From the NCBI RefSeq assembly GCF_964355755.1, contig NC_092679.1:19513432-19577431 (forward strand): DNA of 64,000 nucleotides. Direction: 5' to 3'. This document shows, piece by piece, positions 1 through 50,200 of this stretch (its first letter is position 1; each line of letters starts with the position of its first letter). The position numbers and the translations under genes are program-made. The notes under the pieces are model-generated. The model did not search any database. It was not told the DNA's origin and worked only from the letters and a program-made list of their open reading frames with translations. The stretch comes from Antedon mediterranea. Lineage: Eukaryota > Animalia > Echinodermata.

Positions 1-121
1 CGAAGTGCGAAACAATTACGAAAAGAAGAATTTAGCGGTAGCTCACCTCCATGATAAATGGGACAGTCCGCTATAGCGCCCTCTAGTGGGACCACTCCCA
101 CGTAATACCGTCATCATTTCT
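1..121. repeat. DIRS left inverted terminal repeat (partial)
   Basis: Exact reverse complement of 5221-5341 (121/121 by manual comparison). Confidence 0.95.
76..89 (-). promoter_or_regulatory. CTCF consensus motif in left ITR
   Basis: Minus strand reads CCACTAGAGGGCGC, matching CCASYAGRKGGCRS; binding untested. Confidence 0.5.
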
Positions 122-493
122 TTTCGTATCGTCGTAGTTGACAGACACGAAGTTTTTTCGAAGAGAAGACGAATTTCAAGGAATTCTACAGACTAGAATA
201 GTCTAGCTAGCCGAGGCTAAGTTTAACTTTCATTATTATTGATACGTTGGAATACGTTGCCGTTGTTGTTTAGACAAGGCAGAAATATCGTTTCTTATTG
301 TTATTTTGAGAATTTGATACGTTGCAAACCGTTGACTCGCCTAGCAAGCGAGTCAGAAATAGCTTTAGAGTTCACCGGGGTCACCGGCCGAGTGTAGGCA
401 ACGCTATACAACAGAATCAGTCAGGCGCTAGGTTAAGAGACTGTTTGTTAGGTAGTTGATTGTGTGTCTGTTAGACAGGTGTTTTGCACCATC

Positions 494-2089
494 ATGCCTA
501 AGCAAGAGTGTGTCCAGTGTAGGGGCCCGCGGACGACGGTGAAATGGGATCGCCACATGCGATGTATTAAGTGCCGTACGTGCAATCAGGATAACCCGTG
601 TGACGTTTGCGTTCGCTGGACGCCAGCCAAGTTTGCGTCGCTTCCGCGGCCCGTGGAACGCACTGTTGAGGTCGGTGTTCCGGAGGAGTCCGCGCCTGTG
701 GCGGCTCCAGTGGTAGCTACGCACGATGTCGTGCAACGCGAGGAAGAGCCTGTGGCTTCCGTTCCACTTGCGAAGGAGGTTATTCTCGGCGCCGCGCCTG
801 TTCCCGCTGCGGCCTCTGCAGCCCCGGACCCTAATGAGTTGTCTCCGGCGTTGCTGCATGCCATTGCGGCGGCGGTAAGGGCTTTACCAAGGGACGAGCC
901 TACGGTAGCCCCAGCCCAGCGTCCTCCGATTCCGTATTATCCGGTGCCCCCTCCTCAGACACCACTACCGCCCTTTTCTGAGGGTGCTTCGATGGAAGAC
1001 GACTATTTGTCTGATCGGACTATGGTCACGCTCTCGGATGAGGAGAGAGCCGCGTCGCTTAGGGGGCCCGGTGAGGAGGGTTTACAGGCGCTCGTGAACA
1101 GAGTTCTTCCGGCGGTACTGGCCTATCTTGGAATCGACTACTCGCTCCGCGAGCCTAAGCCTGCGCCTTCAACTAAGCGGTTTTCTACTTTCGGCATGCG
1201 TACGCCTCTTAGGAAAAGCACTACCTGTCCGGTGGTGCCTCTCGACCAAGAACTGATCGACCGCTTAGACGTGTTTGCGCGCGACTCAACAACGACACGT
1301 AGAGCCGCACCGTACATTCTCTCGTCGGCCTTTCCGGTGCCGTCAACGCAATTTGATAAGTACATCATTGCACCGGGAGTGCCTGATGCAGCCAAAGACC
1401 GCGTCCGAGAGGACCAGGGCGTAGAGGCTGGCAAGACCAACTACTTGGCTCCGAAGGCTGCTAAGACAGAAGAGACGCTTCTCGCAGTTGATAGAGCGGC
1501 CCGCGAGACAGTACGCGTGACGTCTATTTCTGGTTATCTCTTGTCGTTCCTGGCGGACCCGGAACACCCTAGAGAGCGTGATGACGAGGTCATCGCTTTG
1601 CTGCAGCAAATAACTGGTCTTATCGCTGATCAGCAAGCGTTTATTTCCGTTACGTCGGCCGCTGCTCGCCGGGTCAACGTCCTCCAGGGGACAGATATCG
1701 CGCCAGCGCAATATCGTAGATTCACTACATCGGAATCTTTCGGCGCTAAGGATCTCTTCTTCGGGAGTTTCTCCCAAAAGGAAGATAAGTGGGCGCGTGA
1801 GCGGGAGGCACGTCGTGAAACTCGATCGAGATTCCCGCAGAAACGTCGGGCTAGCCGTGGACGTTCGGGACCATCCAGACCGCCTCCCCTTTTTCCGGCT
1901 CCAGTACCGCCAACGCAACCGCCAGTACCGACACCGGCGCGTCCTGATACGCAGGCTTCTACTTCTTCCCGCGTTCGCACCCCACATGACATCAACAGAT
2001 ATCCCCGACCTGCACGAGGCAGGCCCGGAAGATATGACGCCAGCCATAAGAGCGGCAGGCGTCCGGGTGCGTTCGCGCGTCGCCGGTGA
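494..2089 (+). CDS. DIRS ORF1, Gag-like protein with N-terminal Cys/His zinc-binding cluster
   Basis: First in-frame ATG at 494; CVQC..DRHMRCIKC..CDVC..W cluster typical of DIRS ORF1; Pro/Arg-rich C-terminus; ends TGA 2087-2089. Confidence 0.85.
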   Translation: MPKQECVQCRGPRTTVKWDRHMRCIKCRTCNQDNPCDVCVRWTPAKFASLPRPVERTVEVGVPEESAPVAAPVVATHDVVQREEEPVASVPLAKEVILGAAPVPAAASAAPDPNELSPALLHAIAAAVRALPRDEPTVAPAQRPPIPYYPVPPPQTPLPPFSEGASMEDDYLSDRTMVTLSDEERAASLRGPGEEGLQALVNRVLPAVLAYLGIDYSLREPKPAPSTKRFSTFGMRTPLRKSTTCPVVPLDQELIDRLDVFARDSTTTRRAAPYILSSAFPVPSTQFDKYIIAPGVPDAAKDRVREDQGVEAGKTNYLAPKAAKTEETLLAVDRAARETVRVTSISGYLLSFLADPEHPRERDDEVIALLQQITGLIADQQAFISVTSAAARRVNVLQGTDIAPAQYRRFTTSESFGAKDLFFGSFSQKEDKWAREREARRETRSRFPQKRRASRGRSGPSRPPPLFPAPVPPTQPPVPTPARPDTQASTSSRVRTPHDINRYPRPARGRPGRYDASHKSGRRPGAFARRR

Positions 2090-4100
2090 CGCGATCGGTA
2101 CGCCCGTCCCCAACATCGACGGGCAGGTGGGGGGTCGCCTAAGACGGTTCGCCCGAGTGTGGGAGACCCTGTCGGAGGACAGGTGGATTCTCGCCACCAT
2201 AAAAAACGGCTACAGCATCGAATTTACGAGCCCCCCGGTGAGCGGGGGCGCTCGGTCGACAAGAATTCCGCCAGAGCCTCTAAAGAGATGTGCGCTTCTG
2301 GACGGCCTCAATTCTCTTCTCCAAAAAGGAGCAGTAGAACCAGTCGACGAACGATGCGCCGTCTCGGGACACGAGTCGACCGTCTTCCTCACAGAAAAGA
2401 AGACAGGCGACTGGCGACCTATTTTAAACCTGAGGAGTCTAAACAAGCGGTTTATTCGGCCCCAAAGGTTTCGGATGGAGACAGTCTCAACCATCCTTCT
2501 GGGGCTAAGACGAGGAGACTGGGCAGCCTCGATAGACCTGAAAGATGCGTACTTTCACGTTCCTATCGCAGAGGCAGATCGACGTTGGCTACGTTTCAGA
2601 ATCCTCGACCAACTGTACCAATTCGTCGCTTTGCCGTTCGGCCTATCGACGGCTCCACGCGTGTTTACACGCATAGTCAGAACGCTGGCGTCGTTCTTCC
2701 ACAAACATGGAATAAGAGTATTCATGTATCTCGACGATTGGTTGGTCGTGGCCCAGTCCAAGGACAGGCTGATGAGCAGTCTGCAATATGTCCTTCTCGT
2801 AACGGAACAGGCAGGTTTCATTGTCAATCGGGAGAAGTCGTGCCTGGTGCCGACACAGCTCCCGTTATACCTCGGAGCACAGATAAATCTCGTGACGGGC
2901 TTGGCGTGTCCATCCCAACAACGCATCGCGTCTGCAATGAGTGCAGTACGCAATCTAATATCTGCTCGTGCTCCGACGGCTTACGAATGGCTCAGAGCAC
3001 TGGGTTGTCTGGCCAGCTTCGTTGCCTTAGTTCCGTATTGCCGGCTACGTATGAGACCTTTACAGCTGCATCTGCTGGCTCATTACCGACCGCACATAGA
3101 CTCCCTACACAAAGTGGTTCCGTCGAATGCATTCATTCAGACGCATCTCGAATGGTGGCTGGTAGAAGGCAGGTTGACTGTGGGAATGCCGATTCAAAAA
3201 TCTTTGCCGGACGTCCGTATAGAGACAGACGCATCCGAGACAGGCTGGGGCGGTTGCTCCAAGGCACTCCGCGCCTCCGGCCTTTGGACGGTCAAGGAGG
3301 CGCGCTCCCACATCAACCTCCTAGAACTCTGGGCAGTCGTCAGGACCTTGAAGGCCCTTCGACCTCACGTGACCGGTCGTCACGTCCTTATCCATTCCGA
3401 CAACACAACAGTGGTAGCATATATAAATCGTCAGGGAGGCACGAGGTCACCGACGTTATGCTTCCACCTCTGGAGACTGATGATGTGGTGCATAGGCAAC
3501 AACATCAAACTCTCGGCTGCCCACATTGCGGGCAGCCTCAACATTGTGGCGGACGCTCTGTCCCGACAAACACTTTGTCCCACGGAATGGCGCCTTCTAC
3601 CCAGCATTGCCACACTGATATTCGACCACTTCGGGCGGCCTCATATAGATCTGTTTGCGACGTCAGACAACACACAGCTCCCGACCTTCTGCACAAGGTT
3701 TCGGGATGCACGTGCGTGGGCGGTGGATGCCCTATCCATACCGTGGGACGGACTATGGGCTTATGCGTTTCCACCGATCTCACTAATACCAACTGTTCTG
3801 ACGCACATTCAGCGCCATCCTTGCCGGGTCCTTCTGATCGCCCCGGGCTGGGCTCGACAAGCGTGGTATCCACTGCTTCTCGACCTGCTCTACGATCATC
3901 CCCTGCGTCTTCCAGTTCGAGAGGATCTGCTGACGCAGGGCCGAGCTGTGTTCTCACTACAGAACCTACAATCCCTGCGCCTGACTGTATGGCCATTGTC
4001 AGGGATCAGCTCCGAGACTCAGGCATTCCAGATGGCCCTGCCGCCCTCGCGGCGAAATCTCGTCGGGAATCTACTCTTACCGTCTACAATAGCCGATTAA
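1797..4100 (+). CDS. DIRS ORF2: reverse transcriptase, RNase H and Dam-like methyltransferase domain
   Basis: RT motifs WRPILNL, IDLKDAYFH, LPFGLSTAP, YLDD; RNase H TDAS..GWG, HINLLEL, SDN, ADALSR; MT-like IDLFA and YAFPP. True start uncertain: frame open from 1614, first ATG 1986. Confidence 0.95.
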   Translation: MSGRHVVKLDRDSRRNVGLAVDVRDHPDRLPFFRLQYRQRNRQYRHRRVLIRRLLLLPAFAPHMTSTDIPDLHEAGPEDMTPAIRAAGVRVRSRVAGDAIGTPVPNIDGQVGGRLRRFARVWETLSEDRWILATIKNGYSIEFTSPPVSGGARSTRIPPEPLKRCALLDGLNSLLQKGAVEPVDERCAVSGHESTVFLTEKKTGDWRPILNLRSLNKRFIRPQRFRMETVSTILLGLRRGDWAASIDLKDAYFHVPIAEADRRWLRFRILDQLYQFVALPFGLSTAPRVFTRIVRTLASFFHKHGIRVFMYLDDWLVVAQSKDRLMSSLQYVLLVTEQAGFIVNREKSCLVPTQLPLYLGAQINLVTGLACPSQQRIASAMSAVRNLISARAPTAYEWLRALGCLASFVALVPYCRLRMRPLQLHLLAHYRPHIDSLHKVVPSNAFIQTHLEWWLVEGRLTVGMPIQKSLPDVRIETDASETGWGGCSKALRASGLWTVKEARSHINLLELWAVVRTLKALRPHVTGRHVLIHSDNTTVVAYINRQGGTRSPTLCFHLWRLMMWCIGNNIKLSAAHIAGSLNIVADALSRQTLCPTEWRLLPSIATLIFDHFGRPHIDLFATSDNTQLPTFCTRFRDARAWAVDALSIPWDGLWAYAFPPISLIPTVLTHIQRHPCRVLLIAPGWARQAWYPLLLDLLYDHPLRLPVREDLLTQGRAVFSLQNLQSLRLTVWPLSGISSETQAFQMALPPSRRNLVGNLLLPSTIAD

Positions 4101-5017
4101 AGCATTTCTTTACATGGTGCAGGCGCCAACAAATAACACCAGGGTTGGTTACCCTTGGTCAAGTATGCGCCTTCCTGCATTACCTATTTGAGTCAGGTCT
4201 TCAGGTCCGCACCATTTCAGGCTATAGGTCCGCCATTGGGGCGGTGACACCAACACTGAAAGACGGTTCTACGATTTCGTCATCCTCCGTTATCACTCAG
4301 CTGATACGGGGGATGTTCAGACAACGACCTCCAGTCAAGGTCTTGATTCCTCGATGGGATGTCAACGTCGTTCTAGCCGCTCTTACACGCCCGCCATTTG
4401 AGCCTATGAGTAAGGCTTCTCTTTACAATCTCTCGCTGAAGACGGCGTTCCTGCTCGCATTGTCATCGTGCAAACGCCGAGGCGAGCTGCACGCTCTTAC
4501 CTTAGAACCAGGGCATGTGAGGTTCGAGCGAGGCGGCGTGAGGCTAGTGTTTAGGAAAGATTTCCTAGCAAAAACTCAGACGTTGAAATATTCGCCGCCG
4601 GCTGTGTTCGTCCCCACCATCACATCTTACTCGGCGGTTGACGGGGACAAACTTTGGTGCCCAGTGAGGGCCCTCAAGTGGTATATCCACCGCACAAAGA
4701 CAATTAGAGACGGAGTGTCTCACCTGTTTGTCACCTCTGTTCCACCACACCGCGCCGCAGCTAAATCAACCATAGCAAGGTGGGTCGTATCTACAATTCA
4801 AAACGCTTACACGTCATCGGACACACCGCCGCCGGCACACATGCATCAATTGCGCGCGGTTGCCACTTCGTGGGCGTTGTTCGCGGGTGTCCCTGTAGCT
4901 GACATTATGGAAGCGGCATGGTGGCGAACACAGTCTACATTCACCTCTTACTATCTTTCGGATGTGTCCGCTAATCTAGCTCCAGTGGCGACAGCAGTAC
5001 TGAAGCCTCGTCTATAG
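2159..5017 (+). CDS. DIRS ORF3: tyrosine recombinase with a long N-terminal extension overlapping ORF2
   Basis: C-terminal ~340 aa has YR catalytic residues R (KRRGELHAL), K (LAKT), HxxR (HQLR), W (AAWW), Y (FTSYY), plus CPVRAL. Same frame as ORF1. Confidence 0.93.
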   Translation: MGDPVGGQVDSRHHKKRLQHRIYEPPGERGRSVDKNSARASKEMCASGRPQFSSPKRSSRTSRRTMRRLGTRVDRLPHRKEDRRLATYFKPEESKQAVYSAPKVSDGDSLNHPSGAKTRRLGSLDRPERCVLSRSYRRGRSTLATFQNPRPTVPIRRFAVRPIDGSTRVYTHSQNAGVVLPQTWNKSIHVSRRLVGRGPVQGQADEQSAICPSRNGTGRFHCQSGEVVPGADTAPVIPRSTDKSRDGLGVSIPTTHRVCNECSTQSNICSCSDGLRMAQSTGLSGQLRCLSSVLPATYETFTAASAGSLPTAHRLPTQSGSVECIHSDASRMVAGRRQVDCGNADSKIFAGRPYRDRRIRDRLGRLLQGTPRLRPLDGQGGALPHQPPRTLGSRQDLEGPSTSRDRSSRPYPFRQHNSGSIYKSSGRHEVTDVMLPPLETDDVVHRQQHQTLGCPHCGQPQHCGGRSVPTNTLSHGMAPSTQHCHTDIRPLRAASYRSVCDVRQHTAPDLLHKVSGCTCVGGGCPIHTVGRTMGLCVSTDLTNTNCSDAHSAPSLPGPSDRPGLGSTSVVSTASRPALRSSPASSSSRGSADAGPSCVLTTEPTIPAPDCMAIVRDQLRDSGIPDGPAALAAKSRRESTLTVYNSRLKHFFTWCRRQQITPGLVTLGQVCAFLHYLFESGLQVRTISGYRSAIGAVTPTLKDGSTISSSSVITQLIRGMFRQRPPVKVLIPRWDVNVVLAALTRPPFEPMSKASLYNLSLKTAFLLALSSCKRRGELHALTLEPGHVRFERGGVRLVFRKDFLAKTQTLKYSPPAVFVPTITSYSAVDGDKLWCPVRALKWYIHRTKTIRDGVSHLFVTSVPPHRAAAKSTIARWVVSTIQNAYTSSDTPPPAHMHQLRAVATSWALFAGVPVADIMEAAWWRTQSTFTSYYLSDVSANLAPVATAVLKPRL

Positions 5018-5088
5018 GTATGTACTGGGGAAAAAATTTTGTTTCTTGTCACCCACCGCCGACTAGATATCTAGTCCGGTGCTACACT

Positions 5089-5186
5089 GGCTTATGTCGT
5101 GTTTATCCATTTAAGCAGGCACGATATAGACTACACAAACCAGAAATGGTGTTGGTAGTCTATGAGTGCCGCTTACCTGGATAAAC
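5089..5186. repeat. DIRS internal complementary region (ICR)
   Basis: 5132-5186 is the reverse complement of the right terminus 5362-5416; 5089-5109 repeats 5350-5370 and so should be complementary to the left terminus. Confidence 0.92.
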
Positions 5187-5220
5187 GCCCGCCCGCCGTC
5201 CCCTCAGACAAGAGGTCTTG

Positions 5221-5416
5221 AGAAATGATGACGGTATTACGTGGGAGTGGTCCCACTAGAGGGCGCTATAGCGGACTGTCCCATTTATCATGGAGGTGAG
5301 CTACCGCTAAATTCTTCTTTTCGTAATTGTTTCGCACTTCGTGGAAAAGGGCTTATGTCGTGTTTATCCAGGTAAGCGGCACTCATAGACTACCAACACC
5401 ATTTCTGGTTTGTGTA
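5221..5416. repeat. DIRS right inverted terminal repeat with 3' extension
   Basis: Inverse of the left ITR plus a terminal segment matching the ICR; followed by ATTTTT and AT-rich host DNA. Confidence 0.93.
5253..5266 (+). promoter_or_regulatory. CTCF consensus motif in right ITR
   Basis: CCACTAGAGGGCGC followed by TA; binding untested. Confidence 0.5.
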
Positions 5417-22436: not shown

Positions 22437-25400
22437 TTAATTTATAAGAAGAATTCTAATATTTCCTTCCATGTCTCTGAGTGGGTTAGTAATCTCACTG
22501 AGAGACGCCAAACAAGAGGCAATATCTTCAGTTTCTTCTTGATCTGTTGATATCACAGTCTTTTCCTCTTTTGCAATCTGTGCCAATACATTTAGTTGAG
22601 AATCAGACGGCATAAGCAGAGCATTCGAGTTGTCGTGCATGGACGGTTTTTGTTCCGTTTCTTCAACCGGACTTGGTTCTACCTTATCAATCATTTTATG
22701 AGTCTTTGCTAAATGTATTCCATCTGTTTTTAAGACTTTCCCATGCTTTGCATATAAATGTCTTTTATACGTGTTCCTGGTTTTGAACCGGGCAGAGCAC
22801 TCAGTGCAGCCAAATGGTTCCTCGCCCGTGTGTCGTCGCAGGTGTTCCCTGAAATGACTGGCGTGTCTGAATTCTCTGCCGCAATGTTCGCAAGTAAACC
22901 GACTTTGGTCGTTATGGATCATCATGTGATACTTGAGACTGTGTAGCCGAGTGAATGTAGCTGAACAAACTTTGCAGGAGTATGGTTTTATACCTGTAAA
23001 TGAAAAAAAAAAATTGTTGTGGAGCTTTAGATTGGTGGTTAATCTTCTTGCTTTCCAATCTCAAGGTTCAGGGTTAAATTCTGACCTAGTGCCAGGGTTG
23101 TAACTCCCTACTCCTAACTACACTCCCTAAGCCTCAGATAAGACTTAGTCTATAAGCACGATAAATTATTAAATAGTTTATCCATCCTGTAATTAGCAAG
23201 TTACTATGTCTATGAAATGAAACAGATCAGATTGATGAACTGGCTACCAAAATAATTGACTATTCCATATATTGTTTGGGGTTACTTTTATAAAATGTGT
23301 GTGTGCATGTTAACTTACCTGCATGACTCCTGTAGTGGGCACGCAGAGTTCCAAATGCAGTGAGCATCTTTCCACAAATCTCGCATTCCAATAGTTCCCC
23401 CTTTCTAATACGACTTCGTTTGCGTGACTGGTATAAGAGTTCCAAGGCTTGTTTCTAGATGTTTTGATAAAAATATTTACTGGTAATAATTTATTTTTCA
23501 ATATTTTTAGATATTTTTTTAACAGTATTACAAGGAATTTAGCTTTTTAGTAATTGCCACTTGCATTATATGCAAAACTTATTGGGTACTTTATGCAGTT
23601 GTTGTAGATTACTGGCCCAGTAAGTCCCTCGCTAGTAACATGTAAGTTGAAATAGCAATAATAAGTAATGGTACAAAAAAAAAAATTCTTGAAGCATTGT
23701 GAAAACAAATGAAAGGGGAAAATGGGAGAAAGTCAAAGTTTAATGTATGTGGATATGCTGTCATCTCTAACCAGAGTTTAAACTGATGGACTGCAGTTAG
23801 CATCAGTAACACAAAGACAACCACTTACTCTTATTCTTCTCTCATCAGGTGTCAAATGTTGAAAGAGTTCATAGTTGATGACTGCCAGTTGTGGATCCTG
23901 CTTCCTTTTCTTTTTACCTTTTGTCAGGCCAACATCCTGACATACATTGTCCATATCAAAGTCTGTCACAATCTCCACACTATCAATATCAGCTGTAGAA
24001 CTCTTAAACGGCTTCTCTTTCATATCAAGACGCTCTTCTTCTACCACTTCCTCCTCTTGAAAAACTACTTGATAATCTTGATAATCTTGACTAGTAATTT
24101 CCGGTTCAGGTATTGGCATACCAGATGAGTCAGTATGTAGAGCTGTTGGCAGAGGTTTTGTTGGAAGGAGCGCGTAGACGTGGTCGACATGAGGCGGTGT
24201 AAGAGGAACGACCTCCATCATGGCAATCAGGTCATCAGCAGTACCCTGCATGTATGTCTGTACGACGATCTCTGCACCAATATTATCTGCATTGATTTCC
24301 TCTGTTATACAGTTCTCACCAATAGGTAGATCAAAAATGAACTCTGAGCTTTCTGAAGATATGTCTCTCTGTAATGATTTTGGAGGTCTTCCTAACTTAA
24401 CTTCTTCTTTTGGTAAATCTATGACATTATTTACTGACAGACTCTGCTCTTCGACTGTCTGTCTTGGGATTTTTATATCTGCATCTTCTGGTTTGTTGGG
24501 TGTTTCTGAGGTACTGGATAGGTTGATCAATCTTCCTTTGGGTAGAAACACAAGTTCATTCACTCCTTCATCAGAATGAATGATTGTAAACTTGTCATCA
24601 ATGTGTTTACTGTCACTATGCAACACTTTAGCTAGTATTCTTTCACTTCTTCTTCCTTGTTTTGTTGCGTCTTGCTCATCTTCATTTTCCGACTCTTTCA
24701 TGAAATGCTTTTGGGGAGATGTTTCTGAAGCTATATAAATAGATGTAATTTGTTAAAATAAATGTATCAAACTAGTTTGCCCAAATATGGTAGGAATGTC
24801 ACATCATCATGTCCATATATGGGCACATCACATGTTTTTGTCACATAAAGTTTGATAGTGTAGAGAGAGATTTAGAGTTAGAAAGCATGTGTCCACATAA
24901 TCAAGATATCTTAGTAAGTTAACATAAATTAAATGATTGAACTTACATTCACTGTCTACACAAAGTGGCCTCTTCACTGCAGTGATATTAACAGTATCCT
25001 TTGCTCTCTTTGAATCTGGATCTAAAATAATAAACAAAATAAATAATTTTTTATATTTTGCATATTGATGTAATTTTCTGGAAAAAATAATCCCAGTTGG
25101 TTTAAGCTGAATAACTTGTTGACTCTCTAGACCCAACAAAGCTTAACTTATACAGTGGTTTTGATTACCCAAATTACTGAGTGTCAGGAGTTCCCCAATA
25201 TGTCGAAGTAGATGCCGTCGAATCTCCTCCTTGGTGTCCGAAGCTGAACCGCAAAAAACCTCTCTGCAATTATGCGGCATCATCTGACAGCTGTACTCGT
25301 GCTGGATGATCGTGCTTGATCGATCTTTAGGAATCTGCTTGGTGGTATGAATGGCGTACTTGTCAACAAGTTCTGTTACCGGTAAACGTCGTAATAGATC

Positions 25401-26971: not shown

Positions 26972-29964
26972 GGATCCAGTCAAGTCGCCCCATCGCAAAG
27001 TCGCCCCATACAAAGTCGCCCAATACAAAGTCGCCCCATCGCAAAGTCGCCCCAAAACAAAGTCGCCCCGGCACAGTCGCCCCATCGCAAAGTCGCCCCA
27101 TTACAAAGTCGCCCCATCGCAAAGTCGCTCCATCGCAAAGTCGCCCCAACGCAAAGTCGCCCCATTGCAAAGTCGCCCACGGTTTTAATCATATTGGGTG
27201 CGTTTGATATCGATTGCGTTGTTACTTTGGTTGCGCTAAATGTCGTATACATTATAATGTTTATCATATTATATATGTTATGCGCGATTTGAACGATTTG
27301 CGCAATTTGAAATTGCGCAAAAAAAATCCTTACGCAATTTGAATTGAAACATGTGTTTCAAATTGCGCAAGCAACGTATTAAATTGCGCAAGTAATCTGC
27401 AAATTGCGCAAAGTTTTTCGACAGATTGTGAAATCATGCACACCCATATTTTTATAGTAATTTCTAAGAATGATTCAAAATTAAAGATAAATATCGCATT
27501 TCCTTATTTTAGTAGTGCAAATATTGTTATAAGTTAGCATACCGTCGAAGAACCGACGAAGGAAAACGAAGCGGTGGTGTTCCACCAGGCGGGCGTGGCG
27601 CGGGCGGCCGGCTATACTACTCTAGCCTAGCTAGGGTCTGGACTACTGATACTGACTAGGTTACATGGCCTAGCTTAAACTAATATTAAAAACTTAATTT
27701 TTACATTTATTTTGATTTATTTCAAGTTACAGTGATAATATTATTTAATTGTAATAATAAATGTTATGTATTTATTATACACATGTTATCTTCGCATTTA
27801 TTATGTTTTATTTTGAGTTATTTAGTTTCCAATAAATTATTATAATACCGATTGTCTGGTAGAATTTTGTTGCGCAATTTGAAAATTTACAGTTCGTTTT
27901 CAAATTGCGCAAAGGTGTCATTTTGCGCAAGAACTATCTTGCGCAATTTACAAATTGTGCAGCGCAATTTAAAATTGCGCAAAGATTTTCTTGCGCAATT
28001 TGAAATTGCGCAAGTTGATTGCGCAATTTGAAATTGCGCAAAAAAATCCTTGCGCAATTTTAAATTGCGCAAGAATTCTTTGCGCAATTTCAAATTGCGC
28101 AAGGATTTTTTTGCGCAATTTCAAATTGCGCAAATCGTTCAAATCGCGCATAACATATACATAATTTGTGTTTTAATTTTTATTTTACAGGTTTTAATGG
28201 AGTGATGTGCTTTTTAAAAATCATTAAAAAAAATAGTTCCTAAAAAGATTATCCCTGATTTATAGTTTCGAAAATGTTAATTTAATATGATTTTAAAATT
28301 AGTTACCAGAGCCACAATTACGAATCTTTCTTCAACCTACGCGTGGATACCAGCTAATTTTTTAGGATAATATAATAAATGTATAAAAATGTGTAGTACT
28401 AGTAGTAGGCCTTCGTATAGATTTACAGTAGTTAAAACAATAACAGTGTTGTGAGACAATGAGTGTTAGGCTACTTATTGATCATTTTGCATTTATTGAC
28501 AAGTTATGTGTCTTAATTTTATAATGACTTTTCAAAATGAAGAAATAAGAAAAAAGGATTTCATCGCCGATATGATTGTTTTACATGCAGGTATTTTAGT
28601 AAAATTAAAATGCTACATTTTGACCATGGAAAAACCATCGTACAGTATCGTGTGCGTGTTTTTTAAAAAGGGGAATCCCCGACGGTCAGCAGAAAGACGT
28701 AGCAGCTGTGAGGAAACAGATACCAGAAGGCGCAGCTCCGATTGGTTTCAGAGAATGTTTCAGATGGCGAGTCGCCTTTTATTCAACAGCACAATGATAA
28801 TTTTACTGAAGAAATTCTTTTCAACCCTTTTGGTTATAGAACATTCTAATTATCATGCCTAATAAATATCCTCATATCGGGTGTTTATTTAATTTTAAAT
28901 TAAACAAGACACTGAAGAGGTACGGAATAATACGTACACGACGGACGTACGACGAATACACACACGCCCGTCATCATTTACGACATATAGTGGTGATATG
29001 ATGCAATTTTATAATGGATATAATGATGGGATTGCCTTTCCAGGCTTACAATCAAGAATCGCATCGACACAATGTAGTTGATATGGGGTTTAAAAAGGCA
29101 CATCGCCTAAACTTTCCCATTATAACTAAACTAAACTAAACTAAACAATCAATGTTCATTGTTATATGTATATAATAATAGTAAACTGAATGTTTATAAA
29201 TAAATTGTTTTACGTAATTTGTTGCATATAAAATAAAAGACACAGACGTAGCCTACGTTTCCTATAAAATATTTCACATTTTAATAATTATGTACTGTTA
29301 AATGACATTATGCTGGATAATACTATAATCTTAAACTATGTTTACATATTATTAATATAGGCCTAATAATAATAATAAATATTCACCAAAGTAAAAATGA
29401 TCTAGATCGTATAACATCATTTTATCGCGACCAAAATTAAACGCAACCGATTTCGAACGCGACTGATATCATCGTAAAACTCCGGCGGGGTTTCCCCATC
29501 TTGAGATGGTGCGTTGTAACCGGCGGAGTAATTACGGGGGTTTCCCTCTGGTAAGCTAGCACGTTAGAGTGCGACCGCGGAGTGATTAGTCGGGGGCTTC
29601 GTCTCTGATGATGGGAGTGCGTGCCGATCGTGTGACCTGAGAGTGAGACTAGGGCCTACATGGCGGGGCTTCCCCCTTTTATGCCTACACGTTCCGTGTT
29701 ATTTTGTGTATCATTGCGACATTTTACGCACTTGTAAACTATTTTTTAACGTTTTGGGGCGACTTTGCGATAGGGCGACTTTGTGATAGGGCGACTTTGC
29801 GATGGGGCGACTTTGCGATGGGGCGACTTTGCGATGGGGCGACTTTGCGATGGGGCGACTGTGTCGGGGCGACTTTGTTTTGGGGCGACTTTGCGATGGG
29901 GCGACTGTGTAAGGGGCGACTTTGTATGGGGCGACTTTGCGATGGGGCGACTTGACTAGCATCC
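26972..29964. mobile_element. Non-autonomous foldback/MuDR-like DNA element with tandem-repeat TIRs
   Basis: Inverted arrays of ~16-bp CAAAGTCGCCCCATCG (26980-27180 vs 29755-29958); termini GGATCCAGTCAAG / CTTGACTAGCATCC; further diverged inverted match 27181-27260 vs 29400-29480; possible decayed 9-bp TSD GTCTAATAG/GTTAAATAC. Superfamily is inferred. Confidence 0.8.
27272..28159. mobile_element. Nested MITE with palindromic TTGCGCAATTTNAAATTGCGCAA subterminal repeats
   Basis: ~70-bp TIRs TATATGTTATGCGCGATTTGAACGATTTGCGC...; TA at both ends. Confidence 0.85.
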
Positions 29965-44200: not shown

Positions 44201-47200
44201 AAAATATGAGATTATCATCGTGGCGAAAATACAAAAAAGCAGCACTGTTTGATTTCTAAAGTAATGCTTTTATTCAACAAATATTTTCTGTAACCAAAAA
44301 AGATTTTTTTTCCGTACACGACAAAAAAAAAACGATTGTTAAATAGTGCGTACTATTGCACGCCATGTGACCCACAATCGTCCAATCAAATTACATGAAT
44401 TTATTTAGGTGTTATATAAAAAATAATAATGATGTTTAATTAATGTTCATAATGCAGCAGTTTCCATTGGAATGTACTCCAACACTGTTGAATTATGTCT
44501 GTTGGAATTTGTACCAAGTGCAGTGAATAATTTAACTCTACTACTCCCTGTAATAATATGATTAGCATGGAAATTAAAGCACTTACTGTATCTCAGGAGA
44601 GTTTAGTAAGTGTTTTGGTACCTTTTGACAATTTCAAACACCTTAAAGTGCATTTTGTCACATTTGTAAAATGTTTGTTTATAAGAATACCAACAGGGTG
44701 CACGGTGATGTTGATAATTAAACTTTAAACACCTATTTTACGTAATAGACTACCTTAGTGAATATTTGACCCATTGGGCATAAATATTGTTACATGGGTG
44801 GAAACAAAACTTGGAAAATGTTCGCTCTTTATCACCTCTGACCTGCTGACTCCTGGGTCATCAAAATCTATAATCTTTTATATTGTCAAAAAAAACAGAT
44901 CAGAGATTATTTTTATTTTTTTTTTATTTATTCAACTTCCCACTAACAGGATCGGGACCAACAGGTGGTAAACACCTCTAAAAACGGTCATGTTGTAAAA
45001 TAGGTTACAACCATACCCTATTTTTTTCTGTTGTCATTATTTAATTTTCTGTATAATATTAAAACTATCCTATAGTATAAATATAGTAATATAATTATAG
45101 TAGTGTTTGTGAGGAAAAGCAAAATTGGAAGTGAGCCCTCTGTTGGTGAAACTCTCAAACCACTAGCTGAAAATGTGTCTATAAAACGTCTAAAGACATT
45201 GAGAAAGTACTTTCTATGGATTAGTACCAACTTATTGTTTTAACTCAACTTATTTTCGTTTAAAGATTAATCATCAATGCATTTTTAAAGGATATAACAT
45301 ATATTTGTATTTTACTTTTAATAATTCTGTACTGTATATACAGTGGAACCCTACTAATAGTGGGGTGCCTTAGGGTCAAAAACGTTACACGGATGACAAA
45401 GTTTTCAAATTTTGCACATATGTTCACTTGGACATACAGATTAAAAAAATCACTGTAGCCAAGAAAAAAAATGTATTTTATGACCATATTTGGAGTATTT
45501 TCAAAATGGCCGCCAAAACAAAATGATGGTCCATATCTTAGTAACCGGTAGGGGTACAGAGTTCATTTTAGTGTTAAATTGCTTAGAACACATATGTTTC
45601 TATTCACTCTAATACAACATTTTGTTAGAAAATGGCCGGAATCATCATTTCCGGAATTGTGACCTTTGACCCTAGTATGGTCATATCTCGATAACTACTG
45701 ACAGTAGAAACATGAGGTTGGTCTTAAAATATTCACAATATACATGTTAGTATTTGGTCTAACGAACTATTTTTCCCAAAAGTGACTGGAAATCATAATA
45801 TTGACCTTTGACCCGATAACCTCAAATTTCGTTACTGAATGCGCATAACATCAAAATATTGGGCTTAAATTGTCAAAAATGTATATTTTTGTATTAATTA
45901 AGGTAATGACTGAATTTGTCAATTGACCAGAAGTAATTATATTAACTTTTGACTTAAATTTTGTTTTATATCACTACAACATTGGCAGTAAATCGTCAAA
46001 CACTTATTTTTCACGCAATACATTGTTTTCTCAACAAATTTAAACAATTACTTTTTCATATGATATGTTTGTTTAGAATGATTCAGATTGTTGTATCTAG
46101 AGATATGGCCTACCTGGTTATGTGTAGAGGAATGTTACATTTTACTATGCGTGATTACATTTCCAGATTATTTTCTGCAAGTTGTAAGCTTCAATAAATT
46201 AATATAACTGTTTTGCAGTGTATTATATTTACAGTTTACACTTCTTCATTTTATATTTCAAACCTCAGTTATTAAAAAATAAAATAAATAAATAATAATA
46301 ATAAGTATTAACTATGTCTTAGAAATAATAAATTCTGACACGGATCGTCTGTATTCAATTACGAGTAATATTATCTGGGACATTTGCAGCTGCACAGTTC
46401 TGTACAAGGGAGGTTGGATTTGGCACATTTGCAAGTCACACAACCACGGTCAGATTTGCAGCCACATTTGATAAGTTCATTGCAGGCCTTGGCTGCTTCT
46501 GGTTTAGTCATCCAAACTGGCTTCCAATGTGTGTCTTCTAATGTCCAACCCCAATCTTCTGGAGTAGGAATAGTTGGTTCAGCATTCTGACAAGTGGTCC
46601 ATATACCTCCTTGATATATGGCTCTTTTCACATAAGTAATGCATCCTACAATATAAATGTAATATAATGTACAAACAATGCTGTTTAGTTGAATAAAAAA
46701 AAGTATGCACTAAGTATAAGTTTAATTGTATTCCAACCATTCAATTTTAATTACCTGGGTGGGTGGAACATGAGCAATATCCTTGTTCTTCTGTGAAAAC
46801 ATATTTCGACGGGCTTCATTTACTGATAATGATATGCTGCTTTTGTTGTATAGAAGAATAGTGAGCCGCTCAATATGTTTGAAGTTGAGAGAAAGACAGT
46901 CAACTTGTTGAAAAGGATGTCTGTACATGGAAAGAAATGCCTCTGTTGCCTCTGGAAATGATTTCCATGCTTTCCAAGCACTCTTCTTACTCTTACCGAA
47001 AAATGAGGATGTAGTGTCACAACCTGAAAAAGCATGGAAAAGTGGAAGGGCGCATGCCATGCTTTCACCTAGATGTCTACACATGTTGTTGATGTTATAG
47101 TAACAGAAGTGATTACCAGTGCCGAATGCAACCCACAGTTTCAGTTCAGGAAATCGATGGCAAAGATTGAAAAATTGACCAATTAGAATGATGATAATGT

Positions 47201-50200
47201 CAGTATCCACTGTTCGCACCATGATTTGTCTTGCACCATGCTCCAACGAGTGCACCAAATGAATTACAATCCTGGTATCTGCTTCTTCTTGTGTTGAGTT
47301 ACTCATGTTGTTTCCTTTAGATATGACTGATGTACCCTTTGTTATGTACACATTCTTGTTGTCTGTAAATGATTGTTGTTCAACTAACTCAGACAAATAT
47401 AGGAATAGTTCCTCTTTGTTTTTGGAATTAAGAAGGAAGTCTTTCCACTTGACAGGTGTCTTGGTTTTTGGTTCTACTTTTAAGCGTACACCTTTACCTC
47501 TCTTCTCTCTAGTAGATTCTTTAATGCTTGATGAAATATATCTATCCCACACAACATTTCGAAATGTTGTAGAAGGATTTCTTTCAAGCGCGTTTTATTA
47601 AATGATATATTCTCTCCAAATTGATGAAGACGATCTTCAAACCAAGAATGTAAATGTGATAATTGAAATAACAATGTTCCCTCTTCTACTAATCCCTCTA
47701 CATAAGAAACCAATTCTGCAAACACTCTGCCTTTCACACGATCTCTTTCTGTTTTAGAAAAAGACAAAGTATTGCTTTGATGTTTTCTATATCGATTTCT
47801 AAATTGCGTCAAACAATCCATGTGGTATTTTGCTGCAATAGCTACTAAATCACCATTCGAAATAGTAGCAAGAAGATCAAAATCATTCATTTCTGTCGCC
47901 ATTCTTCGAAGTATTTTTGTCAGTGACACCTTTGAGTATTCATGAAGCTTTTGAAATGTATCTTTTTTGCAGAAAATACAGTTATTTCTGCTAGGACTTG
48001 CAACTTTCTGTCTTTTTGAAGACCGCTCTTTCGTATCTATGTTTTCTTTTACTTGATGTTTTCTTAACCTTTCCAGCTTAGTGTTGTTGAACTTCAAATG
48101 GCAAGAATGATGCCACGAGGCACCGTTTTTAATAAAAGCCTCCGGTGTACCATGGTCTCCATATTCTAATGAAAGTGGTGAAGCTTGTAGTTGCTTAAAG
48201 CCGTCTACATTGTTTAAAAACGCTTCGTACACACATCTAGCATTAATGTTTCCTCGTTTTTGTGAACACCTTAAACTTTCCGATGTAGCAGACTGGCATC
48301 TTGACCAGTCCATTGTAAGTGTTTACTTACACCTAGTCTAGTCATAGGGCTAGTGTCTCGAACATAAATTCTGTGAAATATATAGAGTAAACTTAAACAA
48401 ATAACAATCCTGATAGTTAAAAAATAAATATGAATGTTTTTCTTTTATTCATTTTCTATCATTCATGTTTTAACCAAAATACGTGTAAGAAGCAATTCCT
48501 GTACCTATTGGTCCTAAACCTATAGCCTACATCAATTATTTAAAGTTATTAAAAAAAATTGTAATTATTTAAATTATTTAAAGTTAAATTTAATAATGAT
48601 GTGTAATTGCAATATAATTTTTCACAAAACTACACTTGGGACTCCCTGTAACTAAGCATTTGCTAGGCCTATGAGAGGCATCCGCTTTGCATTGCCACAG
48701 TCGTTTTCGCCGTGGAGGTATGCCTAGCAACGAGCCTGTGTTAGCCTAGCCTAATTGATAATCAATTTAAATGCTTAAAAGAAACAAGAAAGTAAATTAA
48801 TGGTAACCTAATGCTTTAAAGTGGTAAATCAATATATATATATTTAATAAAAACACTTGTTTGAAATCAACAACTGCTTTATAAGCATAAAAATACTTAC
48901 CACTTGGCAATTATCCACCTGTCAACACGTTTGACTTCATAAACTTTTAGCCAATCAGAATGCCGGATTTTATGAATACTCATTTTGGAGGGAAATCTTT
49001 GTCTAGGTAATACTATAGTAATTGATTGTATATAAAAGGGGTTCTATGGACCTTAAATAATGAAATCATTGTTATTATTAGTATTTATTATTCTCAAATA
49101 GAAACTATTATAACAAATATTGTGATTTATTTTAACTGGTCTTTGGAACGTTAAAAAATAGATTATGTCGAAAAGGCACTGCTTCTCTATAACACTGAAG
49201 TTAGTTGTAGTGATATAAAACAAAATTTAAGTCAAAAGTTAATATAATTACTTCTGGTCAATTGACAAATTCAGTCATTACCTTAATTAATACAAAAATA
49301 TACATTTTTGACAATTTAAGCCCAATATTTTGATGTTATGCGCATTCGGTAACGAAATTTGAGGTTATCGGGTCAAAGGTCAATATTATGATTTCCAGTC
49401 ACTTTTGGGGAAAATAGTTCGTTAGACCAAATACTAACATGTATATTGTGAATATTTTAAGACCAACCTCATGTTTCTACTGTCAGTAGTTATCGAGATA
49501 TGACCATACTAGGGTCAAAGGTCACAATTCCGGAAATGATGATTCCGGCCATTTTCTAATAAAATGTTGTATTAGAGTGAATAGAAACATATGTGTTCTA
49601 AGCAATTTAACACTAAAATGAACTCTGTACCCCTACCGGTTACTAAGATATGGACCATCATTTTGTTTTGGCGGCCATTTTGAAAATACTCCAAATATGG
49701 TCATAAAATACATTTTTTTTCTTGGCTACAGTGATTTTTTTAATCTGTATGTCCAAGTGAACATATGTGCAAAATTTGAAAACTTTGTCATCCGTGTAAC
49801 GTTTTTGACCATTTTTTCCCTTAAGGCACCCCACTATAAGGGGAAACTTTACCATGAAAATGTTAACAATATGACCACCCCTTATTTAAGTGGATACTTG
49901 GCTGGTCATGAATTTGTTCCTTTATTTGTGTTTTCTACTGTATGCAACTGCAAATATGTTGGATAGCATTTTACCGTCTAAAGTAATGACTTAAGCTCTG
50001 TCTACACTATCAAACTAGTTTGACAAAAAAAGTTTGATGTGCCCAAATATGGTAGTGATATGATATCATCATGTATATATGGGCACATATAGTTTTATAG
50101 TGTAGACAGAGCCTTAGACATCTTGTATTTAAATCCAACAATAATAATGGCCAATTTATCTATTGTTGATCCTTTAATTATCATTATCTTAATTATACAT

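Follow-up and report, generated by a model that had tools for sequence, protein, structure and literature searches.

A putatively leaky Gag stop codon as a candidate route to the tyrosine recombinase of DIRS1-like retrotransposons

How DIRS elements express both reverse transcriptase (RT) and tyrosine recombinase (YR) from one RNA was not explained in the literature covered, nor was the second frame that stays open across pol in half of these elements. Both questions apply to a copy at the start of the window (the whole analysed stretch, 64,000 nt of Antedon mediterranea DNA). Judged from its sequence, the copy is an intact-looking DIRS1-like retrotransposon, with a pol ORF encoding RT and RNase H, a YR ORF, inverted terminal repeats and an internal complementary region (Table 1). 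The 5' part of the internal complementary region was a repeat of right-end sequence; its left half had no comparison partner, the left end of the element lying outside the window. ORF1 matched no Pfam or PHROG family and was named Gag-like from its position in the DIRS layout. In ORF2, the Pfam matches to RVT_1 (3.5e-22) and RT_RNaseH (1.9e-6) were both above cut-off; the approximately 180 aa after RNase H, the place of the DIRS methyltransferase-like domain, had no Pfam or PHROG match. The YR domain gave Pfam matches to SAM-like and Phage_integrase families, both below cut-off, and carried R, H-x-x-R and Y motifs starting at 4472, 4844 and 4940, which we take to be the catalytic residues. No protease or rve (DDE integrase) match was obtained for the element in Pfam, no solved structure matched its YR by sequence, and no relative of it was found among viral contigs.

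Table 1. Features of the element in the window
Feature	Position	Strand	Remarks
Left inverted terminal repeat	1..121	+	100% complementary to 5221-5341 over 121 nt; cut by window start
ORF1, Gag-like, 531 aa	494..2089	+	N-terminal Cys/His motif; C-terminus rich in R/P/S
ORF2, RT + RNase H + further C-terminal part	1986..4100	+	+1 frame relative to Gag
Junction CGG-UGA-C	2084..2090	+	Lone in-frame stop; predicted readthrough site, possible +1 shift site
Bridge, ~639 codons, Gag/YR frame, overprinted on RT/RNase H	2090..4006	+	Stop-free
Hairpin, 7 bp	2102..2124	+	12 nt past stop; possible stimulator, weak support
GTG overlapping the conserved Trp codon of RT	2159..2161	+	Start not conserved
ATG six codons before YR domain	3989..3991	+	Internal-start alternative; such ATG in 13/33 elements
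YR domain	4007..5017	+	PHROG integrase 3.9e-7
Internal complementary region	5087..5186	+	~5132-5186 against reverse complement of right end, 61/79 letters
Right inverted terminal repeat and right end	5221..5415	+	

When positions 494-5017 were translated, 1508 codons were read with a single internal stop (TGA, 2087-2089), in agreement with a preliminary description in which ORF1 and ORF3, the downstream YR frame, were joined in one frame broken only by this TGA. The next 23 codons (2090-2158) were stop-free. The beginning given there for ORF3, at 2159, is no more than a GTG whose TG comes from the conserved Trp codon of RT, and the first ATG of the frame is at 2288. The stop lies in the context CGG-UGA-CGC. 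That this copy carries a nonsense mutation in what is naturally one fused Gag-YR gene, as the preliminary description had allowed, is hardly credible, and nothing was found in its favour. The public contigs of the family, which stand under two species labels, kept the TGA-C junction unchanged, a sister subfamily kept TGA-C despite 29 differences over 215 nt, and a stop was present in 41 families. Further, no Gag-YR protein of fusion length was found among 51 matches (range searched up to 1707 aa), and none of the best 150 YR representatives exceeded 1121 aa, indicating that the stop is kept rather than lost. A weak search found no longer Gag relatives.

Families were defined by RT less than 70% identical, and 47 were informative; the tree relating them was a quick tree only, and a scan for loci with the YR alignment was precluded by its divergence. 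Gag and YR shared one frame across a single stop in 41 of the 47, and the same layout was seen at 65 of 86 anchored loci; the different frames or multiple stops that could have spoken against readthrough were mostly not encountered. The Gag-YR frame was open up to the Gag stop; for the 1219 linker codons, the expected number of stops was 46. A linker stop was expected in approximately 24 of the 41 families and observed in one (L079), in which RT is broken. In four families (L042, L044, L051/L052 and L077), Gag shared its frame with RT and not with YR, again with a single stop in between; one of them has a TAA stop, and RT and YR were intact in three. In every intact family, these four among them, neither downstream frame was interrupted after the Gag stop.

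The bridge over RT had 0 stops in 615 codons in the window, where 25.7 were expected (the lowest of 100 resamplings gave 16). In a set of 33 elements, the YR frame held 0 stops across RT where about 1007 were expected, whereas the third frame held 1293 against 1080 expected. Among the loci with YR in the expected frame, 62 of 64 had no bridge stop. The amino-acid identity of the bridge equalled that of the stop-riddled third frame (13 pairs), so that a conserved bridge protein was rejected; RT fourfold sites diverged by 0.51, compared with 0.53 in YR. These sequence comparisons showed that the bridge is kept open by selection against stops, without selection on its amino acids. Such selection bears on the idea of a subgenomic or spliced message for YR, with an AUG start near the domain and an open bridge that is incidental. 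We regard this idea as quite improbable: it is favoured by the ATG that the window, like 13 of 33 elements, has six codons upstream of the YR domain, but 11 of the 33 had no ATG within -60 to +25 codons of the YR start, and the complete loss of bridge stops argues against it. The first in-frame ATG lay 8-543 codons after the stop in these 33 elements. A crude motif scan found no splice donor or acceptor common to the families, with donor-like words fewer on the sense strand (120) than on the antisense strand (164), and on this basis the splicing out of the stop, or of RT, was rejected.

The junction stops in the 41 families comprised 26 TGA, 15 TAG and no TAA, although 11.4 TAA were expected from local bases and TAA ended YR in 12 of 36 cases in the same elements (p=3e-5). 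TAA was also rare at RT ends (3/38, p=0.11). The base after TGA was C in 16 of 26 families (p=5e-4 against off-frame triplets in Gag) and the base after TAG was G in 10 of 15 (p=2e-3, same background); the excess of C after TGA was not significant when compared with YR ends (p=0.42, n=8). The p-values given here and below are optimistic, as the families share ancestry; the pattern of stops held at 50% clustering (24 groups). Leaky contexts (UGA-C, UAG-G or UAG-C) were present in 31 of the 41 families, UGA-CUA in 5, and an A directly after the stop in only one. The preferences for UGA-C and UAG-G match type II and type III readthrough motifs (PMC3159437). The emphasis that the preliminary description placed on UGA-C was justified in part: leaky contexts were enriched and UAA was absent, but UGA-C itself, though the commonest context, was present in 16 of 41 families. 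Selenocysteine insertion or a changed genetic code was rejected, as TAG stands at the junction in 15 families and ordinary stops terminate the other ORFs.

Two features expected of readthrough, a single in-frame stop conserved in relatives and a leaky context, were found. We therefore consider it probable, at roughly three chances in four, that the Gag stop is a programmed leaky stop read through to a Gag-bridge-YR fusion, as first suggested for this copy; the layout, the stop contexts and the absence of a shared AUG or splice signal support this interpretation. Most ribosomes would end Gag at the junction; the minority decoding the stop as an amino acid would continue through approximately 640 stop-free codons over the RT gene to yield a predicted Gag-bridge-YR protein of 1507 residues. 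YR would then be made at a low ratio to Gag and could be carried into particles on it. Termination could instead be followed by a nearby AUG-independent restart into the YR and RT frames, giving a YR of approximately 970 aa unfused to Gag. LINE-1 ORF2 is a precedent for such a restart. The two frames open from the Gag stop in every intact family, the four Gag-RT ones included, would suit it, as would the NTG followed by G that was always present at the Trp of RT. However, the Trp codon itself dictates this NTG, and the codons before it were also stop-free. The codon at the position of 2159 was CTG in 14 families, GTG in 10, ATG in 9 and TTG in 8, and a conserved AUG there was rejected. Nor does restart need a fixed frame, yet Gag/YR, Gag/RT and other relations stood at 41:4:0 across linkers of 15-72 codons, and it does not predict the loss of UAA or the leaky contexts. 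We consider restart unlikely.

A +1 frameshift would likewise select for a slow stop, and the context bias therefore does not single out readthrough. RT was in +1 to Gag in 41 of 41 families, open at the stop and without a conserved AUG of its own; an RT-frame ATG before the conserved Trp was absent in 17 of the 41. Of the 15 NCN codons directly before the stop, 14 were NCC (p=2e-6 against a background of 0.33); the pre-stop codon closed with a doubled base in 27 of 41 families (p=2e-7 against 0.27) and was CCC, TCC or TTT in 14 of 41 (background 0.083). This bias was restricted to that one codon; at the ends of YR and RT it was reduced or lacking. Antizyme +1 sites include UCC-UGA, CCC-UGA and UUU-UGA (PMC1874602). 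Readthrough might accordingly be extended, with nearly even odds, by the same slow stop also driving a +1 shift into RT, which the constant +1 frame, the missing ATGs and the antizyme-like pre-stop codons favour. On the other side, 27 of the 41 families lack CCC, TCC or TTT, the CGG of the window would be expected to re-pair poorly after a +1 slip, and the P-site bias could instead tune readthrough. The window copy also has two upstream RT-frame ATGs (1986 and 2034), both altered in the sister subfamily, and the four families with Gag and RT in frame would need another route to YR. The RT frame was open upstream of the stop for 87 versus 82 codons; this run is a by-product of Gag composition and does not point to upstream entry. 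Selection on the RT-frame overlap with Gag was rejected (0 of 41 families at p<0.05). That one stop serves as a three-way switch among Gag, Gag-bridge-YR and Gag-RT in a wide DIRS1-like group is offered tentatively, at somewhat less than an even chance.

Readthrough at the Gag stop may be helped by the hairpin in the folding models, and the argument does not need it. The perfect 7-pair stem described earlier (2102-2108/2118-2124, 9-nt loop) is present, as is its extension (2091-2096/2133-2138, one U-G pair). Four of five folded stretches had the hairpin in the predicted structure and all five had it in the centroid, but the stop region folded no better than shuffles (z -0.75 to +1.23; -0.50 in a separate fold). 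Perfect 7-bp stems that begin 6-16 nt downstream of a given position were present at 0.8% of sampled positions in the element, so that the stem is uncommon, though chosen after the fact. Such a stem was found at the equivalent place in 4 of 41 families (p=0.016 for 7 bp, 0.32 for 6 bp and 0.16 when G-U pairs were allowed). Among the changes listed, none fell in the hairpin arms and the loop varied in three lineages, a weak sign of conservation at the local level; a sister-subfamily change at 2094 breaks the extension stem, unless a change beyond those listed compensates. The conserved, covarying stem anticipated by the preliminary description was not seen: the hairpin was not conserved across families, and two-sided covariation was absent. 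Mild excess folding was detected 40-109 nt downstream (mean z -1.66, with 14 of 41 families below -2), but background windows also folded below zero (about -0.5) and the structures differed between families.

A leaky Gag stop would explain the ORF overlap and how an element with no protease carries its integrating enzyme. If readthrough operates, YR should be lost when the junction stop is changed to UAA or when the bridge receives a stop that is silent in RT. If the three-way switch holds, the relative amounts of all three proteins would depend on one codon, and the overlapping ORF region would serve as a bridge for translation and not as a protein domain. Together, the 41 junctions provide a natural set of putative signals for readthrough and +1 shifting. 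No published account of Gag-YR readthrough in DIRS elements was found in a search that did not reach several primary DIRS papers.

In the passages covered of a published survey of DIRS1-like elements, Dictyostelium DIRS-1 included (PMC3266345), a long pol/YR ORF overlap is reported in half of 28 elements, and the overlap is described there without a translation mechanism. The three ORFs, inverted terminal repeats, internal complementary region, long overlap and YR domain in the non-overlapping 3' end are the same in the window. Our sequence comparison adds the fixed Gag/YR frame, the single, apparently leaky stop and the unconserved bridge. Antizyme +1 shifty stops (PMC1874602) share with DIRS the second ORF in +1 and the UCC, CCC or UUU before the stop in 14 of 41 families. 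However, half of those 14 use UAG, the DIRS zero frame is open beyond the stop, and CGG-UGA is absent from the listed antizyme sites. With type II readthrough (UGA-CUA/CGG and a 3' stem-loop; alphaviruses, tobraviruses), DIRS families share the UGA-C and UGA-CUA contexts (16 and 5 of 41, respectively), whereas the window has UGA-CGC and structures vary among families. In gammaretroviral gag-pol readthrough (type III, UAG-G and a pseudoknot; PMC3159437, PMC13517186), the Gag stop is likewise in frame with an enzyme ORF, and UAG-G is found in 10 of the 15 TAG families of DIRS. By contrast, no shared pseudoknot was seen in the DIRS families, and DIRS elements, which encode no protease (PMC12440569, PMC3783388), have none of their own to cut the fusion. 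The in-frame product in DIRS would be the recombinase, reached across an RT that is encoded in another frame.

The window opens with a DIRS1-like retrotransposon, so assigned because of the features in the table, in which Gag and the tyrosine recombinase (YR) share one frame. As the preliminary description had claimed, 494-5017 held one internal stop, the TGA at 2087-2089. Its ORF3 start at 2159 was right as a coordinate but not as a start codon; there was no ATG, merely a GTG overlapping the conserved Trp codon of RT by 2 bases. Readthrough at the Gag stop would yield a 1507-residue Gag-bridge-YR protein, a reading to which we give a probability of roughly 0.75 on sequence grounds. DIRS elements are described as lacking a protease in the parts available of PMC12440569 and PMC3783388; packaging of YR by Gag would be a guess.

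Features of the window
Feature	Position	Strand	Details
DIRS1-like retrotransposon	1-5415		left end beyond window; identical inverted repeats, internal complementary region, RT/RNase H ORF, recombinase domain; 55% GC inside 30-36% GC surroundings
Gag (ORF1)	494-2089
RT (ORF2)	1986-4100		+1 frame relative to Gag
YR domain	4007-5017
Bridge	2090-4006		stop-free run of Gag/YR frame over RT/RNase H
Hairpin stem	2102-2108/2118-2124
Hairpin extension	2091-2096/2133-2138
Probable host gene	22437-24752	minus	open frames resembling exons; C2H2 zinc-finger motifs in one of them
Likely non-autonomous TIR element	26978-29957		201-nt inverted repeats, 94%, made of 16-nt units, 2578 nt between
Likely young DNA transposon	45374-49810		two minus-strand open frames (46722-47594, 47480-48322) enclosed by 607-nt inverted repeats without mismatch, spacing 3223 nt

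The stop was compared within the element's own family using contigs aligned to 1900-2230, which show presence, not expression; four records spanned it, and contigs from runs X9 and X10 lay outside it. A contig in run X5 was identical to the window, and one in run X7, under a second species label, had four differences, all listed, with none at 2087-2090. A sister subfamily (X5) differed at 29 sites in 215 nt, none of the 28 listed lying at 2087-2090; a probably degenerate relative (X7) had 18 differences, of which the 10 listed included one at 2086 and none in the stop. The TGA was thus unaltered among the listed differences of all four records, and a nonsense mutation peculiar to this copy is very unlikely. 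Over 2120-5100 the matched runs also contained several divergent DIRS families (similarity about 80-87%), whose summed depth exceeded that of the window's family; one relative had a one-base deletion at 2117 and diverged after 2158.

Relatives were selected by RT similarity, independently of the junction (80 metagenome stretches, the best of the 509 that were confirmed, plus 14 genome-bin contigs). We infer that the latter are eukaryotic contigs mis-binned with bacteria; the long-ORF elements L081, L082, L084-L087 and L088-L089, filed under Sedimenticola and Brevinema bins, are probably host DNA binned with symbionts. Anchoring and an upstream stop were achieved for 86 of 94 loci, the other eight having no anchor or no upstream sequence. 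In 65 loci the YR frame was open for 250 codons or more above one single stop; the remaining 21 were open to the contig edge (10), had a short run (9) or were mis-anchored (2). Clustered at 70% RT identity, window excluded, the families were 41 standard, 6 edge-cut, 1 mis-anchored and 6 short. The frame relation proposed for Gag and YR was therefore found, with a single stop, in 41 of 47 informative families, and readthrough appears well supported by this comparison. Among the short-run families, L074 had a standard junction with a break farther upstream and L079 had two stops and a broken RT. Gag shared the frame of RT, with one stop between them, in L042 (TGA), L044 (TGA), L051/L052 (TAA) and L077 (TAG), where the YR frame began 9-14 codons above the Gag stop and the overlap showed no slippery site of the X-XXY-YYZ type. 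This arrangement is either a swap or the outcome of inherited indels; L055, one copy of a standard family, was brought to the same state by indels. Genuine exceptions are possible, since L051 and L052 were 99.9% identical in two contigs with RT and the YR frame intact.

Gag stops in the 41 families were TGA in 26, TAG in 15 and never TAA, against 11.4 TAA expected from local base composition. YR ends in the same elements were TAA in 12/36 (p=3e-5 versus Gag stops) and RT ends in 3/38 (p=0.11, not significant). The suspected leaky UGA-C context was the commonest, with C following 16/26 TGA; G followed 10/15 TAG, and A followed the stop in 1/41 families. The pattern was unchanged with 24 groups at 50% identity, and TGA and TAG were intermixed on a quick RT tree, even inside well-supported small groups (L021/L030, L058/L071, L075/L088/L089). 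The Gag stop thus looks leaky. RT ends were TAG in 26/38, often behind a Leu codon and within the YR frame; this bias is probably an overlap constraint.

Across all 94 loci, the YR frame over RT was stop-free in 62, held stops in 2, was frameshifted in 10 and had no YR on the contig in 20. For the 33 elements that were scored, comprising the window plus 32 families (nine others had no YR, were frameshifted or were skipped), the bridge held 0 stops versus 1007 expected with RT amino acids fixed, and the third frame, neither RT nor YR, held 1293 versus 1080. A conserved bridge protein was rejected: in 13 pairs of related loci its amino-acid identity equalled that of the third frame, and fourfold-site divergence was 0.51 in RT versus 0.53 in YR. 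The bridge is maintained open yet carries no meaning as protein; being stop-free but unconserved, it must be crossed by ribosomes in frame. The linkers, from Gag stop to RT's conserved Trp, comprised 1219 codons with about 46 stops expected, in a standard class defined by a single stop from which L079 alone drops out on that ground; ribosomes must therefore enter at the Gag stop or just after. Entry just after it, by AUG-independent restart, is improbable. A shared start codon was sought at the Trp in 41 families and none was found (CTG 14, GTG 10, ATG 9, TTG 8). The first YR-frame ATG lay 8-543 codons downstream of the stop. An internal start has in its favour an ATG six codons ahead of the YR domain in 13/33 elements, the window among them, but 11/33 had no ATG near the YR start, and a crude scan of the families found no shared splice signals; either source of YR is very unlikely. 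Many YR relatives in protein searches were about 950 aa, the longest among the best 150 at most 1121 aa, in agreement with a stop-bounded YR frame.

The hairpin described downstream had correct coordinates, as did its extension, and its role as a readthrough stimulator is unproven. Folding z-scores there were not significant, and the covariation sought was not seen: no two-sided change occurred among family contigs. The sister subfamily had 4/9 loop bases altered and, among listed changes, none in the stem arms; its difference at 2094 disrupts the extension, barring a compensating one among those unlisted. One loop base varied in three lineages. In a third family the stem seems to persist, one pair being U-G and the loop longer, in a register inferred from loose ends. 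A comparable stem at the corresponding position occurred in 4/41 families, and folding 40-109 nt past the stop was mildly stronger (mean z -1.66 versus about -0.5 in distant windows; 41 families). Very stable stems (z -4 to -9) lay 4-143 nt from the stop in L014, L021, L023, L081 and L089.

RT could come from a +1 slip at the Gag stop, a tentative proposal compatible with readthrough. An RT-frame ATG ahead of the Trp was absent in 17/41 families; both of those in the window were altered in the sister subfamily, the one at 1986 less certainly owing to indels. Upstream of the stop, the openness of the RT frame was accounted for by Gag composition, and the crude scan likewise gave no shared splice signals from which RT might be made. 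In the codon before the stop, NCC made up 14/15 NCN codons and the last two bases were identical in 27/41 families, a bias absent at neighbouring codons. The window's CGG-UGA would be a poor slip site, which makes the +1 reading less sure there.

The long ORF overlap of DIRS elements is already known (parts available of PMC3266345, PMC9210276, PMC6681497 and PMC5633606). A literature search on DIRS with readthrough or a shared Gag-YR frame found no such proposal; primary DIRS papers, outside the search, may note the shared frame. Neither frameshift nor stop codon nor readthrough was mentioned in the available text of PMC7192593. DIRS did not come up in the review PMC5009743 within its first 300,000 characters, and the accessible portions of PMC2685390 and PMC5941688 contained nothing relevant; in those of a bioRxiv zebrafish paper readthrough referred to transcription. 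The Gag-stop contexts resemble the type II (UGA-CUA/CGG) and type III (UAG-G) readthrough motifs (PMC3159437; PMC13517186, in part). Likewise, CCC, TCC or TTT preceded the stop in 14/41 families, as at antizyme +1 sites (PMC1874602, in part), and a stop that is slow could favour readthrough as well as the +1 slip.
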